From Octopus sinensis (Eukaryota): a stretch of 64,000 bases of DNA. Shown one piece after another: positions 9,767 to 58,187 of this stretch. The DNA is taken from positions 16,430,001 through 16,494,000 of the forward strand of contig NC_043004.1 in assembly GCF_006345805.1 (NCBI RefSeq), written 5' to 3'. Every line of letters starts with the position of its first letter. Position 1 is the stretch's first letter. The notes beneath the pieces were generated by a model. The model was not told the origin of the DNA. It saw nothing but the letters and a program-made list of their open reading frames with translations, and did not search any database. A program made the position numbers and the translations under genes.

Positions 9767-9958
9767 TAGGTCCCGGGTTGAGTCGGGGTTAACCACAGTA
9801 AATAAGGTACTCAATACATAGCAGAGTAAATTAACTTATTTTATAGAAGGAGCTTCTACAGGACTAGAACTGTTTCATTCAAATGAAATCATCAGAAGCT
9901 TCCTGATGATTTCATTTGAATGAAACAGTTCTAGTCCTGTAGAAGCTCCTTCTATAAA

Positions 9959-39700: not shown

Positions 39701-42229
39701 GGGGAGTGAAAGAGCTGGCCTGGTGATTAAGATCTCGTATGCAAAATTATGGTTTCGATTTCGGGAGCGGGTGGTGCGTTCTGTTCTAGAAGAAATCACT
39801 TCATTATACGTTTCACTGCTATCACTTCAACATTCTATATGTGGCCAAACGTGCACCACCCGTACATTTAATGCCGACTTGATTGAGGGCTTGTGCAGAT
39901 TTTTCAGTAAGAAATTACTAATAGATAGAGGGGTTCAACGTATATATTTCTCAAATTTCATTTATTCAAAGAAGGGAATTATGGAAGGAAATGTTTCCCA
40001 CTTCTATCAGCAAATACACGTAACACACATGTGGCAATATTGAAATACGTGTGTAGCACGAAATATAACAAAATATAATTTTGACTCGGAATCAAAATCA
40101 TTTTATCTATAAAAAACTCCTTCATTAAGATAAAGAGAATAACTTTATCTAATCAGAGCTCTATATTTTCAAGCGGTAAATACAATTTGGTTTTGATTTA
40201 GCTGCTACCGCTGGCCTATTTCGTGAGTATAACTATCTTAATATTTTCTTTAGTGGTGTTACATCTGTACAGTGTGGGTACGTGTATGTGCCCATCAAAT
40301 TATTAAGACAGGAATAGTTTGATATTTAATGTAAACAAACTGAAATAATGTGATAAATGTAATAAAATTGTCTTCAAGATATATATTTTACAAAATATTC
40401 TTACGTTATCAGTAATTTTGCCAAAAAGAAATCTTGTGTTTCAGATATTCACCCCATATCAAAGTTTATTTGCCGTTTACAGCTCTGTCTGCACTCCAAA
40501 GTATATCGTGGCATTTACTTGAAATATGGTATAACTACAGGCGATAATATTTCTTAGTATGATTCGCGAACTTTTGAATATTTGGCAATGTAAATGAGTT
40601 TTGCAACCTCATTTATAAGTGCAAATTCACAACTGTTCTGATACAAGTTATTCATAGATTTGTGATGCAGAAGATAAAATAGTATACGATAATCTTTCTT
40701 CCGTATATTGAAATTAGACATACTGTTTGAATATGTTCGATGTATCAAAATGATATATTGGAAATATAAATAATCTGCACTCTATTACGCAATATTTTAT
40801 ACAGTAATATAAAGTATTGTAAACTACCAGCTGTTTCTTATTCAAACGTTTATACATTTTCAACATTAACCGTTGCTATAAATAAATAGGAATATATTAT
40901 CACAATTGAATGTAACAAGACAATTTGGGAACATATAAGTTTAGACTTTTTATACGAATCTAAGTATTGTTTTGATATCTATGTGGCAATTGATCTCTCA
41001 ATTTCGTAGAACCAAATTACACTGCATCTGGTGGATATTTCGACACTGAATATATCAGCCGTGGAACTAAAATATCGCAGGTGATAAAAATAATATCACT
41101 ACGTCAAATATTTGATATTATCTAAGTATTTAATCTGTTTAATGACCTCAGCTATAATATGAATGTTGACTCAGTGGCTTAAAAATGAAAGAATGCTTAT
41201 AATAATTTTACATTTCCGGTTCTTCTTGAGTTATATTTTAAATGATATTCTGACGAGCGCAAAAGACCCAGGTGTACTTCTATAGTACAAAGAGTTTCAA
41301 GACTTAAGATAAATTCTCGAAACTCGGTCCATTATTCTTTTGCAAAAAAATGTAAAGCCTTGCTCTCTTAAGATATAGAAATTATTCTTAATAGTTTCGT
41401 AACAATTATGTATGCAGTGAATATTAGATATTACCACGCAGATCATTTAGATGTATGTGTCAAGCATCTGTGCTATATGGAAATTAATTACTTGTTTTCA
41501 GACACTGATAATGAGGTTGAGGCTTCAATTATTTCATTTACTTCCCACAATTAATGTCACTTAGTACTAGTCAGATAGTGTCATGAGCGTGAACTACGCA
41601 ATTTAATACTCCGCTGTTTTAAAAATACAAACTAACACCTTTTCTTCTTATGATGGATAACTTTATAGATAGTCTAGGCAGTTTACATCCAACAGTATGC
41701 CATTCCAACCATAAAAATCATGTCTACGTTTTTGGTTGTTGTAGATTTAATATATTTATCTGCTGTTTAGAAGAAGCTGCCTTTTGATCTGGGGTTGATG
41801 TCGATGCTATTTATAAGAGTTCAATTGACCACGTAGAGCCTGCGTCGCTGGCACAAGTTCAGTAAATCTGTGCCAGTTAGTTTAAGTATGTCATTTATTG
41901 ACCAGTATTTTACATATAAATGCTCTCATAAAACATAAATCTTTTTAGAACACTTTCACAACTAAACACTGGTCGTTTTGCAACACTAAGTACAAAAGAT
42001 AACAAACCATATGTTGCTTTGATAAATTTTCACAGGTTTAAATGACACTATTAATAAATGGAGACGATACTGCATAGTAAATGTTTTGATCTGAGCTTAT
42101 TACCTAAAACTAAAGTGGTTGTAGTCTGGAAAACATAAGTAAGCCACTCAAAAACATAGAAAGATCTGCACCTTCACTTAAACATTTATTTGTAATTTGC
42201 TGTCAACATTTTTTGTCAGTAAAAGGGTC

Positions 42230-44434: not shown

Positions 44435-45340
44435 ATACAATATGTTACATTACTCGGTAGTCAAGATAAAACTCTGAGTTTCAGATGCCGAAGTGGAAAT
44501 CCACAACACCATCTCTTCGGTTATCTGGCTATTTGAAAACGTTATGAAAAAATACCGTTAAAAATGAAGGGAAATTACTCTGTTATAACTCTGCTTTGCC
44601 TGCGTACTTATACATCGCTCGCATTTTTCGTCATAAAAATTATATAAAAATACATAAAAATATATAAAAATATATAAAATCTTCTTGGGACATAACACAG
44701 AAAGCATGTTCTATCCGTTTTCTTTAGGGGACCAAAAACGTAACAGAAATTTAGTCACATGTGGGCATGATCCGAAAAGCTCTGTCCTTGTATTTAGACA
44801 TGTGGTAGGGTCTAAGCTGCTTTTCCAGATAAGCCATCTCTCCATGTCGCATAAACCGCACCTTCCGCTGCCGTTAGTATAGGGCTTACATCTGGCCAAA
44901 ATCTTCCATTGTATGTTATAATCGACACCTTTATCTCTTAAAGACCAAATATGATTGGATAATTGTGTCGCTTTTCTTTTGTTCCAGTGCCTAAAGCTCA
45001 AAGTGTGGTTATTGAACCTGGCCTTGAAATTACCCTCTGTCAGGCCCACGTATTTCTTCGTCGAAACGGTGTCTTTAGTGGTTATAGAGTTTACGGTAGC
45101 TTCATATATGATGGTCTTGGACATGCAAGCTCCATTTAGCGGGCACAATTCTTTATTCCTGCATGAACAGCTGTTTTCTTCTTGTGTTTTTTGTATGTTA
45201 TGATTGATTATGTTTTTAAAATTGGTAGTTGAACTAAAACTAATTTTTAAATTGTGTCTATTAAAGAGTTTCCTATAAGCATGGTTAACTGGAAAATGTC
45301 TATCTATCAGTGCTAGGAAATATTTACCTATATTGAAGGC

Positions 45341-45342
<2 letters not shown>
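44435..45342 (-). mobile_element. 5'-truncated Penelope-like element: GIY-YIG region plus 3' pseudo-LTR with HHR-like motif
   Basis: Bounded by (TA)n on both sides. Segment 44440-44530 is nearly identical to the arms of the hairpin at 58179-58405. Confidence 0.88.
44711..45342 (-). pseudogene. PLE C-terminal linker and GIY-YIG endonuclease (frame open, N-terminus lost)
   Basis: NIGKYFLALIDRHFP, CSCRNKELCPLNGAC, TIIYEATV..KYVGLTEGNFKARFNNH, CGLCDMER, LNTRTELFGSCPH. The ORF-track extension to 45478 is microsatellite. Confidence 0.88.
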
Positions 45343-45376
<34 letters not shown>

Positions 45377-45386
45377 CACAGACACA

Positions 45387-45449
<63 letters not shown>

Positions 45450-45454
45450 GTATA

Positions 45455-47570
45455 TATAATAAAAGAAGGAAAATGCATGGATGTGTTACTTATCTGTTTA
45501 TGTAGTGAGGTTCTCCGTCTTAGGGTCGTACGTGTCTGTCCAATATAGTTATGTCCAAAGTGTGAGGAGGGTATAACTTAAATCAGATTCTCGGAACCAC
45601 AAGTGAAGTTGATTTCAATTGTGAACCTCTCTCCTTGCTTGTAAACTATAAAGAACATAAAAGAATGAAAGATCCTGCAACCTCTATTCTTCTACATGGA
45701 AACGGCCTGACAGTAAAATAAATAGATTATATCACGAATTTTATATGCAAAAACTTGACTTTTTTACGGCGTACCTAAAATACACAAAAGCAAGAGAGTA
45801 AACGAAGCCTGCAAACAATCACCAGGCAAATACATAAATATCAAAGCGCAAGAAGACTTAAAGTTAAGACCCACTGAAACTGGCCGAGCCTGTGAAACTC
45901 ACTGCCTAAGCAATTTTGAAGACATTCTACTGAAACCCTTGCTGAAATACATCAAAAGATGATCTAGACATGCTTGAGCACCTACCAAAAACAACTAATG
46001 AAGTGATATTATTGGTTTCCTTTGATCTTAGTAGTCTTTACATCAACATCTCACATGTCTATTGAATGGAAGTAATAAAACTCTGGTTGGAAAGTATCCC
46101 GAAGTATTTTCTGAACGCATAAAGTAGGTTTTTATCATTGAAGCTTTCAAATGTATACTTCAGAACAATTATTTCCTATTTGATGGCACCTCCTGTGGTT
46201 AAAAATCCGGAATTGCGATGGGAACGAAATTAGCCCCTGTTCTTGCGAACCTAATGATGGGATATTTTGAAATCACCCTATATGAAGTATCTCAGCAAAA
46301 ATATGGATAAACGTTCACCCTTTATATAATTGAGAACTGGGACAGTTGCCTGGCACATCACTTTATCAATTGGAATGAGTCCATTGTTAAACGTTTGGAA
46401 TTTAAATCAATAAAATAAACCCTAACTTTGGATTTACAATGGAATATATCATAGAACAACTCGATTTTTGAGTATTAGGATAAAAAAAGTCAAGAACCAA
46501 ATTGTAACTGACATTTAACCAACTGACTTGAAGCAATATCTCCTTTTACCTCATACCACCCGAAAGACATCAAAAGAATTGTCCCCTTTAATGTATCAGA
46601 TTTGCAGAATAGAGACTGGTAGACATACTCGGGACCTTCACCACAACACTAAATGAAAGATAACGTCCACCCTCATTTATAGACGATGGAATTAAGCGTA
46701 CCAAGAAATTAGGCAGTAAAACATCAAGAGCAACAAAACATAACACCACACCTCATCTGAAAATACTATCATATATCAACTCATAACTCTAGGAACAAAG
46801 AGGCATGCAACACTATTGTCCAATATTTTAAAATGCTTGCCAGAAAACCAAAAATGAACAACATTCTGAAAATACCTCGATTCACCAAACAGAAAATGCA
46901 ATACAAATCGCTGAAGCCAATGGTTCAACCAGGTGGACGCCCAAACTTGGAATATGCCCCAACCTACTGGAAGGCTCGGAATTCCTATTCAAACAAGGAA
47001 AGAGCTTTCAATTAAAACCAACTTGACATGTGCTTCCGAGAATCTAATTTATGTCATAACTTTGAAAGGTTATGGATATAGCTATATAGGACAGACGAGT
47101 ATGACACTAGGACGGAGAACCACACTATATAAGTAACAGATCCGGTTCCCGCAATACAGATTCATTTAGAGAGATGTGCAGGTAATATCCAACCAAAATA
47201 CACACTTTTCTCCATCTACCAGATAAAAAATTTCTATACAAGAGCTTTCAAGTAAAGAAAATTTGTTCATTGAAAAATAAAGAACATATATAAATATGAA
47301 AGCATAACCAACTTTGGTCTCAGTACGTATATTAAATCCTGATCACATACCCTTCACTGTATATAGATCATCTCACTACTTTAGCTTTTAAATTTTTATG
47401 TATCTCCAAAAGATGAGAAATTCCCACCCCTGTCCCTAATAATAACGATCATCAATTACGTCCCCTTAGATGGTAAACCTTTCATTCACAAACTCCACAA
47501 ACAACATACGAAATTGCAATAAGTTCATGATTAGCGAAAGCGAAACCTGTCGCCAAGCACATTTTCCTTC

Positions 47571-56625: not shown

Positions 56626-57660
56626 AAATATATTTTTAAATTACATCCTGTAGTGGACAGACAAACATTTTTACTCACTCCATATCACCTGTCTACTGAA
56701 CAGAAAATAATGTGACCAGTCTAAATTTAGATACAAATATTATTTATACAGCAGATGAATATATGTTTCCTTTAATATTTGATGGCTATGTTTTATGAAA
56801 CGTCTGGAAGTTGTTGAAATTGCCACATCATAAGTTATCTCGTTCAATAATTAATTAGACAATTGCATGGAATGTAGTTTTCTATGTCTGTAGAACATGT
56901 CCTAAAGTAAAAAAAGATGCTTCATTCTCAACCACGATGTTCCGGTTTCGATTCATCTGTGTGGTATATTCAACGAATTTGGATTTCTCTAGCATAGATT
57001 TGATTGTAAAGGAAATTGCATTGACAATAACTGTATAAAAAGCCCGCCGATTGCTGGAACATGCAAGTCTAAGGTTCAGGTATGTTATCTCGTTCTATGT
57101 GGCAATAACCTGAATAATACATTAATACTTAGCCTATTACTTGATGATTTAATGAGCCTGTTAATTTAGGTGATTGAGCAACTGAATACTCCTGATTAGA
57201 ATTTGTGCCCATGATAATTTCAATCCTACCCTTGATAATACTTACTGTGAGAGTTGTATTATTTATGGACTCTCAGTACATGTCGCTGGTGTGGCTTTAA
57301 TTTAATCTTAATCTGTTCATATTTTTCATATTCGTGTGTTTCGTTCGTTTACTTTTTAAAGAGATTGCTACTTGCGATGACTGAGAAATAAAGTGAAACC
57401 TTTTGATGTATGCATGCTATTGGGTTTTATAGACTTTTTCTCTCGCTTCTTAAAACTAAAACCTTGAGAGTTACATCGAAACCGTCACAGCAGTCGCTGT
57501 GGTTAACAAGTTCGATTTGCAACCTCGCGTTTTCGGGTTCAGTTAACTATGTATTACTTTGAGATACTGTCTTCTGGTATAGACACCTGGCTAACCAATG
57601 CCTTGTGAATGAACTTGGCAGACAGATTACGAGTCAAAGCCTGTCCTATATACATGTATA

Positions 57661-57698
<38 letters not shown>

Positions 57699-57716
57699 CA
57701 TTTATGATTATAGTAT

Positions 57717-57830
57717 TCTACGCTGAAGAGAAAAGAAGTTTCGGTAAGATAGAATTATTTATTATTTAATATTTAATATCTAATTCTTATGCTTTCCTTA
57801 AAACTTGATTTCGAAACGTACGTCCGTGGA
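57717..57830 (+). ncRNA. Type-I minimal hammerhead ribozyme with canonical core
   Basis: Stem I TCTACG/CGTGGA; CTGAAGA at 57723-57729; long stem II (GAAA..AAGTT..AGAATTA / TAATTCT..AACTT..TTTC); GAAA at 57813-57816; C-GTAC-G; GTC triplet with predicted cut after 57824. Confidence 0.8.
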
Positions 57831-58016
57831 TAACTAAAAAAATGTATGATAGATTGCAGTCAATTCATTCTCTCTTACCTGTTTGTGTCTGCCTTCCAAA
57901 TGCTGTTTTTACTGAGATCTCCCTTTTTAGTAGAAGAAATAGCTATAACCCTTTGACTGCTATTTCTAAATTCGGTATGTGGTAAGGCAACTCGTTGCTA
58001 AACCCTTATTGCTTAG

Positions 58017-58094
<78 letters not shown>

Positions 58095-58127
58095 ATATGT
58101 ATATATATATATATATAATATATATAT

Positions 58128-58178
<51 letters not shown>

Positions 58179-58187
<9 letters not shown>

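Follow-up and report, generated by a model that had tools for sequence, protein, structure and literature searches.

Animal retrozymes have been described as elements with RNAs of 170-400 nt, with amphibian hammerheads that act in dimer mode and with circularisation by RtcB (Cervera and de la Pena 2020, PMC7229834). Retrozymes have been related to the pseudo-long terminal repeats (pLTRs) of Penelope-like elements (PLEs) (Li, Clavereau and Pollet 2026, bioRxiv 10.64898/2026.07.22.740005), and a palindromic helix III has been reported for PLE hammerheads (Cervera and de la Pena 2014, PMC4209133). A double-hammerhead design is described for the satellite ribozymes of newt and axolotl as well as for PLE hammerheads (PMC7229834, PMC4209133, PMC3088659). 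Craig et al. describe PLE insertions as partial tandems that adjoin an inverted, 5'-truncated copy, are extended at one end only and target microsatellites (PMC8557442); (TA)n is preferred by Naiads and has been proposed for Neptune (PMC8557442). Here and below, statements on published systems follow excerpts of the papers cited. In this study, we analysed a stretch of 64,000 nucleotides from Octopus sinensis (assembly GCF_006345805.1, contig NC_043004.1, positions 16,430,001 to 16,494,000, forward strand; hereafter the window). It contains, at window positions 57717-57830 on the + strand, a sequence-complete type I hammerhead for which self-cleavage is predicted, and which is part of a repeat family with a 607-bp unit. 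By sequence-level criteria, the element is a metazoan non-LTR retrozyme, new in its architecture and of a kind already known. The probable explanation is that the 607-bp family is a non-autonomous non-LTR retrozyme with a dimer-mode hammerhead, copied into (TA)n tracts by the reverse transcriptase (RT) and endonuclease of a PLE. This explanation builds on features read directly from the genomic sequence, namely the family and its copy number, its arrays, the lack of an open reading frame (ORF), the insertion architecture, the conservation and covariation of the stems and the self-complementarity of the 8-mer ACGUACGU.

The core of the hammerhead is complete when read from the sequence, with every conserved base and the G10.1-C11.1 pair present, as a first-pass annotation of the window had stated. 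Stem I comprises 6 bp, including one U.G, between the 5' strand UCUACG (57717-57722) and CGUGGA (57825-57830). It is followed by the core strand CUGAAGA (C3-A9, 57723-57729), by stem II, an imperfect 83-nt hairpin closed by G57730-C57812 (57730-57812), and by the core strand GAAA (G12-A15.1, 57813-57816). Helix III (57817-57824) consists of C57817-G57822 (C15.2-G16.2) around the loop GUAC, followed by U16.1 and C17; adding A15.1-U16.1 to C57817-G57822 gives a helix III of 2 bp. The sequence supports the single pair that closes the palindromic GUAC and the dimer-type design recognised in it by the annotation. The triplet GUC lies at 57822-57824, with the predicted cut after 57824.

Minimum free energy (MFE) and centroid folds (ViennaRNA) of 57705-57842 both recover stems I and II, for which the annotated lengths of 6 bp and ~83 nt also hold in the sequence. 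In both folds, 57711-57714 pairs with 57833-57836 to form a 4-bp distal extension of stem I, which is separated from it by a 2x2 internal loop (57715-57716 / 57831-57832); sequence, folds and alignment place the 3' side of this arm, from the stem I strand through the internal loop to the extension, at 57825-57836. The motif is not minimal in the published PLE sense, as had been proposed, because G10.1-C11.1 directly follows A9 and helix III is closed. The 8-mer ACGUACGU (57816-57823) is its own reverse complement. In a two-molecule fold, the 8-mers of two copies form an intermolecular helix III of 8 bp, and this fold has -62.0 kcal/mol compared with 2 x -24.8 kcal/mol for two monomers.

The motif belongs to a conserved and abundant family, whose absence the first-pass annotation had named among the observations that would count against it. 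With the 320 bp between the (TA)n tracts as query, 1598 first-look candidates were obtained in the 2.72-Gb genome, and the 40 that were scored had identities of 100% (16) or 99% (24). Near-identical copies were spread over at least 13 contigs. A 25-mer spanning the cut site occurs 1202 times in the genome (627 + 575), compared with zero occurrences of the reversed control. The unit of 607 bp is arranged in head-to-tail tandem repeats, has 34% G+C and a longest open frame of 58 codons, and carries the hammerhead core on one strand only. We found no LTR, no primer-binding site (PBS) or polypurine tract (PPT) and no ORF in the unit, and the arrays of the sampled loci were pure 607-bp repeats. For the 607-nt monomer RNA, extensive self-pairing is predicted (-168.1 kcal/mol, z = -6.0), and none of 20 shuffles folded equally well. 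Contigs of four sequencing runs, which carry no information on read starts, ends or strand, cover the unit at 85-100% likeness.

The window copy is a 5'-truncated single arm of this repeat at 57690-58019 (+). In a blastn search with the unit, 57690-57824 corresponded to unit 473-607 at 99.3% and 57825-58019 to unit 1-195 at 100%, i.e., 0.54 unit with one ribozyme, which is the sole copy in the window. The first-pass annotation had described a ~320-bp non-coding element bounded by (TA)n. The copy is indeed non-coding and flanked by (TA)n on both sides; it is not free-standing but a truncated piece of about half a 607-bp unit, and the (TA)n tracts are the insertion target rather than a boundary of the element. 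The TA-rich microsatellite on the 5' side spans 57647-57697, and the 5' junction (unit 473) lies in the unit's own AUAUAUAA stretch (unit 466-475), a place where the 5' ends of 5 of 72 arms cluster. The (TA)n microsatellite on the 3' side spans 58018-58181 and is joined at unit 195 (..GCUUAGUAU). A further hairpin annotated at ~57934-57966 is real and part of the repeat body (unit ~111-143); its 9 bp (57935-57943 paired to 57959-57967, +) enclose a loop of 15 nt, in the sequence as well as in the MFE fold of the unit. We regard the window copy as most likely a dead-on-arrival fragment. It had been put forward as the best candidate in the window for self-cleavage; among all copies it is a poor one, being a single ribozyme without a partner in cis. 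An origin of the DNA upstream of the window copy from a tRNA or short interspersed nuclear element was considered and rejected, as ARAGORN found no tRNA there.

Among 170 distinct copies in the sampled loci, 161 retained the full motif and 152 had six of six stem I pairs, while CGUACG was present in 159 of the 161 complete motifs. Two substitutions were found in 762 site-copies of CUGAAGA, compared with 0.99% in the unit body, and none in 438 site-copies of GAAA, a count that is partly biased since the 25-mer used for finding the loci includes these bases. A search pattern that kept helix III but shortened stem II gave 401 matches versus one for the control. Most of them represent a more diverse sibling family with a 584-bp unit and a 60-nt stem II; the 584-bp unit shares 85.8% identity with the 607-bp unit along its full length.

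Both families were combined in an alignment of 45 sequences, consisting of the window copy, 12 variants of the 607-bp family that were each seen at least three times in the sampled loci, and 32 distinct sibling sequences picked by eye for diversity among the first 100 listed matches. Seven loci of other families were excluded, as their stem II could not be aligned. Scored on the structure derived from the window copy, 91.2% of the stem cells were paired, compared with 34.7-53.1% when the partners were slid against each other. Six pairs changed on both sides, and the observed covariation score was reached by 0 of 500 shuffles. In stem I, 99.6% of the cells were paired, with CG in 32 rows and UA in 12 at one pair and UA in 30, UG in 13 and CG in one at a second changing pair. 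Pairs 2 and 3 of stem II varied likewise (AU 35, GC 7, GU 2; AU 40, GC 3, GU 1), and 40 of 44 rows had G-C at 10.1/11.1. In the distal extension of stem I, 77.7% of the cells were paired, with a UA/AU exchange at one pair. Helix III never varies and thus says nothing either way. Together, these changes support stems I and II of the predicted hammerhead by covariation.

In animals, canonical hammerheads of type I consist of a helix I of 6 bp and a helix II of 4 bp, the loops of which contact each other. Helix II is given as 7-8 bp for the minimal hammerheads of PLEs (PMC4209133), and stem II of hammerheads is often only 2 bp (PMC3088659). In the folds, stem II of the Octopus motif is built from G10.1-C11.1 and three A-U pairs, a purine 2x2 internal loop, about 25 further pairs and an AT-rich apex. 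According to the alignment, the apex (~57761-57781) is missing from the 584-bp sibling family, and the extra length is a ~21-nt AT-rich apical insertion. At the level of sequence, the long stem II is hence a 60-nt hairpin common to the sibling plus this insertion, and, as part of the best explanation, the hairpin would have been inherited from the older 584-bp family. Among the sampled copies, stem II is most often 83 nt (63 copies) or 76 nt long (32 copies), and the spread beyond these values is in part single-base assembly noise. The apex tolerates deletions of 6-7 nt; given that these are present in multi-copy subfamilies, it looks like a neutral expansion. Both families retain an internal loop after the first 6 bp of stem I and another after the first 4 bp of stem II. 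The former consists of U.U + A.A in the 607-bp family and of U.U + G.G in the sibling, followed by 3-4 pairs. The two internal loops occupy the positions of the canonical loops 1 and 2 and may represent a candidate tertiary contact.

We mapped the insertion architecture at 50 loci, which came from 30 partly overlapping candidate loci and 30 stretches in genome order, the latter drawn from the first 100 listed 25-mer matches. All 69 arm 3' ends within the fetched DNA adjoined a TA-rich microsatellite, at UA/AU sites of the unit. These ends fell at unit positions 195 (32 ends), 196-197 (5), 201-204 (8), 290-293 (4), 298 (8), 305 (8) and 310 (2), with one end each at 154 and 248. The 72 arm 5' ends were spread along the unit and clustered in its TA-rich stretches at 15-32 and at 465-475. 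Single arms made up 24 of the 50 loci, 22 loci were head-to-head with abutting 5' ends, none was tail-to-tail and four were complex; arm lengths ranged from 0.1 to 14.4 units. Single arms ended at unit 195-204 in 23 of 24 cases. By contrast, among the 17 two-armed loci for which both outer ends were visible, 16 combined an arm ending at 154-204 with one ending at 287-310, so that one arm was ~100 nt longer at its outer end. The arm ends of the sibling family agree with this (205 and 306 at locus L125, 205 at L124). Taken together, the insertions conform to the PLE style in their partial tandems, inverted 5'-truncated neighbour, one-end extension and (TA)n target, as judged from sequence. The PLE association suggested by the first-pass annotation is borne out to this extent, as the motif resides in a non-coding mobile repeat with Penelope-like insertion architecture.

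Units within an arm differed by 0.32% on average, compared with a mean of 1.43% (median 0.84%) between arms, and at two of the two-armed loci the arms were identical to each other, both 0.5% off the reference. This homogeneity fits one template per insertion, without proving a circle. Two further patterns were considered at the junctions and rejected. An enrichment of 5' ends at unit position 1 (3 of 72) was discarded as two arms of locus L074 were BLAST artefacts with true starts at ~582 and 591, and putative scars of cutting and ligation (9 of 150 junctions non-canonical) were, by eye, not above assembly indel noise. The window itself, at 33% G+C, has 54 (TA)n tracts of at least eight repeats within its 64 kb, which makes targets for (TA)n-specific elements extremely common in it.

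The closest likeness is to the non-LTR retrozymes of metazoans (coral Acropora, mussel Mytilus, axolotl). These are also non-coding AT-rich tandem repeats in genomes where PLEs co-occur, with one type I hammerhead per unit in one polarity, thousands of copies and a monomer predicted to be self-paired. Stem II is 60-83 nt in the Octopus families versus ~4 bp in metazoan retrozymes. Strict (TA)n targeting, defined internal starts and frequent two-armed insertions are features of the Octopus family that do not appear in the excerpted descriptions of metazoan retrozymes. For the latter, expression and circles have been shown, whereas the Octopus family is known here from sequence alone. The helix III design, with a single closing pair and a palindromic tetraloop, resembles the dimer-type amphibian hammerheads (newt satellite 2, axolotl HHR_Amex1), and as in these, activity is predicted for paired motifs and inactivity for a lone one (PMC7229834). 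The amphibian type has a 4-bp helix II, a terminal loop 2 and conserved contacts between loops 1 and 2 (PMC7229834), whereas the Octopus motif has an internal loop at each candidate contact site and a helix II that is longer by ~25 pairs.

With the minimal hammerheads of PLEs, the Octopus motif shares the PLE-style insertions, a palindrome formed by 15.2-16.2 and loop 3, and a helix II longer than usual (PMC4209133). Minimal PLE hammerheads have a helix II of the length given above, a helix I of 4-5 bp and, separating A9 from 10.1, an unpaired base; they reside in the pLTRs of coding elements (PMC4209133). In the Octopus motif, G10.1 comes directly after A9, helix I has 6 bp and an extension, and the carrier has no ORF. 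LTR retrozymes of plants are likewise non-autonomous and carry hammerheads thought to yield circular RNAs; unlike the Octopus family, they have type III hammerheads in LTRs, a PBS and PPT, 4-bp target site duplications and mobilisation by Ty3/Gypsy elements (PMC4918200). A published description of the 607-bp family was not found in the octopus hammerhead literature as represented by titles and abstract openings (supplements excluded).

Several observations weigh against the retrozyme reading. Folded as a single sequence, the motif does not stand out (z = -1.81), with 10 of 200 shuffles equally stable. The covariance-model search proposed by the first-pass annotation was negative: the Rfam models, hammerheads included, had no match to the window at the gathering score, and the Rfam hammerhead models had no match at E <= 10 for the region, the 607-nt unit or the sibling unit. 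This is likely due to the 60-83-nt stem II. The case for a real ribozyme consequently rests on the family. Here, conservation within the 607-bp family is of little power, because the family is young (~1% divergence). The core is invariant in the alignment because the search pattern fixed its bases; moreover, the structure scored came from one member, the rows are related and the siblings were hand-picked. The unit of 584-607 bp exceeds the 170-400-nt RNAs and 150-450-bp repeats of metazoan retrozymes, although this size is a soft criterion given that consensus length varies widely among vertebrates (bioRxiv 10.64898/2026.07.22.740005). The unit had no blastn similarity to 24 sampled PLE loci (20 GIY-YIG loci and four long ones) out of 5029 candidates. 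Finally, the multi-unit arms all run through the predicted cut site, and only one of 72 arm 5' ends lies there (locus L030).

The read-through of the cut site and the near-absence of arm 5' ends there would also be expected if the hammerhead were a conserved passenger that no longer cuts, with the family spreading from uncleaved multimeric transcripts via a PLE enzyme and without a circle. In line with this, hammerheads of the PLE type are inefficient at cleavage in vitro (PMC4209133), Naiad PLEs are successful despite lacking a canonical hammerhead (PMC8557442), and within-arm homogeneity is also expected from homogeneous source arrays. A passenger, though, does not readily account for the retention of the full motif in 161 of 170 copies with fewer substitutions in the core than in the body, for stems I and II that stay paired by compensatory changes between families 14% apart, or for a perfect 8-nt palindrome in 159 of 161 complete motifs. 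We therefore consider this explanation unlikely.

PLEs are abundant in the genome. A search gave 5029 GIY-YIG first-look candidates, and of 150 scored, 147 reached E <= 0.001. At L051 2146-6040, a PLE with (TA)n on both sides has an open frame of 781 aa containing RT and GIY-YIG domains, with 29.1 bits for RVT_1, just below the Pfam cut-off of 29.6, and 27.8 bits for GIY-YIG, above the cut-off. As many loci show the same open frame, this PLE family may be active. No parent PLE was detected by blastn among the 24 sampled loci, a sample far too small to exclude a partner PLE. Other matches bearing GAAACGUACGUC were considered as a parent PLE and rejected, as they turned out to be further non-coding tandem families.

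The PLE data bear on a second explanation, in which the 607-bp unit is the pLTR of an autonomous PLE and the arrays are solo or partial remnants of coding copies. The pLTRs of PLEs do carry hammerheads and form partial tandems (PMC4209133, PMC8557442), and retrozyme consensus sequences of Xenopus match PLE termini (bioRxiv 10.64898/2026.07.22.740005). Yet an ORF between units was seen at none of the 50 mapped loci, where pure repeats extend up to 14 units, and the unit lacked similarity to the 24 PLE loci even with their 3' flanks included. This makes a pLTR origin very improbable.

Slightly more improbable still is a repeat propagated at the DNA level with a relic ribozyme-like string, either a satellite spread by unequal exchange or by extrachromosomal circles, or tandem repeats borne by a Helitron/Helentron with insertion at AT. 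Tandem arrays and insertion beside A/T-rich DNA would suit this explanation, as would a small hairpin (GCAAC..GUUGC) located ~20 nt before the commonest 3' end of the unit. It is contradicted by the variable 5' ends and the use of six or more alternative 3' ends, each at a UA microhomology, by the absence of a fixed 5'-TC or 3'-CTRR terminus of Helitrons/Helentrons, and by head-to-head structure at 22 of 50 loci with none tail-to-tail, with near-identical copies over at least 13 contigs. That AT-rich DNA matches the hammerhead consensus here by chance, as the non-significant single-sequence fold and the missing Rfam match would allow, can be dismissed in view of the conservation and covariation of the family and of the core string with a 60-90-nt stem II, which has two matches in the window versus 0.16 expected (two matches in 0 of 100 shuffles).

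Other observations concern related sequences in the window and genome. At window 41250-41329 (+), a second string CUGACGA...GAAA...GUC has a 58-nt stem II; no canonical stem I adjoins its core, with 6 bp possible 3 nt away, and this string may represent a degenerate copy of a different repeat with a ribozyme. Two identical 34-nt strings of the form CTGATGA...GAAA...GTC, at 9862-9895 (-) and 9903-9936 (+), constitute a near-perfect palindrome. An open frame at 44714-45577 (-) with ..GHNYIGQT.. scored 20.5 bits for GIY-YIG, below the Pfam cut-off, and probably represents the remains of a PLE endonuclease; it lies 12 kb from the hammerhead. Outside the window, a hammerhead-like string at L034 2621-2678 (+) combines a stem I of 6 bp with a stem II of 39 nt and a helix III of the form C-UCGA-G, and lies ~1 kb from a GIY-YIG match on the opposite strand. 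The 3' untranslated region of the L051 PLE contains five spaced copies of a ~100-bp repeat with TGACGTC. Another non-coding tandem family with (TA)n flanks and a period of ~553 bp (L127 3855-5577; also L117-L121, L126 and L128) carries CUGAYGA...GAAACGUACGUC with the same palindromic helix III and a ~24-nt stem II, without G-C at 10.1/11.1. As several retrozyme-like families share ACGUACGU, ribozyme dimers between RNAs of different families are conceivable.

With respect to the sequencing data, single-base deletions were frequent among otherwise identical copies, which suggests homopolymer errors in the assembly. In the hammerhead region (L006 2113-2129 and 2184-2209), contigs of run X2 differed from the reference by T>C (20), A>G (9), C>T (3) and G>A (1). 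The differences were clustered on the same contigs, and run X10 had no such skew. This pattern resembles ADAR-type hyper-editing of double-stranded RNA, as could arise from inverted arms; a genomic subfamily would be possible as well.

Returning to the retrozyme reading, we propose the following course of events. Multi-unit arrays would be transcribed, and two hammerheads would pair via ACGUACGU into a double hammerhead with an 8-bp helix III, in which each would cut after GUC and thereby release 607-nt monomers. The host tRNA ligase would circularise the monomers, by analogy with the retrozymes of coral, mussel and axolotl, and the ribozyme of a circle would remain idle because of its lone 2-bp helix III. 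The GIY-YIG endonuclease of a PLE would then cut a (TA)n tract. Start sites with UA microhomology beside (TA)n suggest that the cut, TA-ended DNA primes by pairing inside the RNA; it would anneal to UA-rich sites, mostly at unit 195-204, and initiate reverse transcription there. Since multi-unit arms cross the cut site and synthesis starts internally, the template would be either a religated circle or an uncut concatemer. Synthesis would pass the cut/ligation site repeatedly, producing arms of 0.3 to 14 units, and stop at a variable point. In about half of the events, the other DNA end would also prime ~100 nt further (unit 287-310), giving rise to an inverted second arm.

A more specific version of this mechanism can be put forward only tentatively. 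Here, the arrays would be fossils of rolling-circle reverse transcription on a self-cut, religated 607-nt circle by a PLE enzyme, which is related to telomerase and would start internally in a telomerase-like manner, with two fixed zones ~100 nt apart (195-204 and 287-310) serving both ends of one break. The loop-loop contact would have moved to the internal loops, which would have freed stem II to reach 60-83 nt.

The family bears on how PLE enzymes pick up and copy retrozyme-type RNAs. With ~1% divergence and more than 1200 intact cut-site 25-mers, it preserves unusually clean insertion junctions. Their regularities are a footprint that can be tested, namely that of a telomerase-related enzyme primed within a template that is circular or concatemeric. 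The two Octopus families further indicate that a hammerhead can bear a helix II of 60-83 nt and yet be retained with compensatory changes. As curated covariance models miss such forms with a long stem II, censuses based on them probably undercount these hammerheads.

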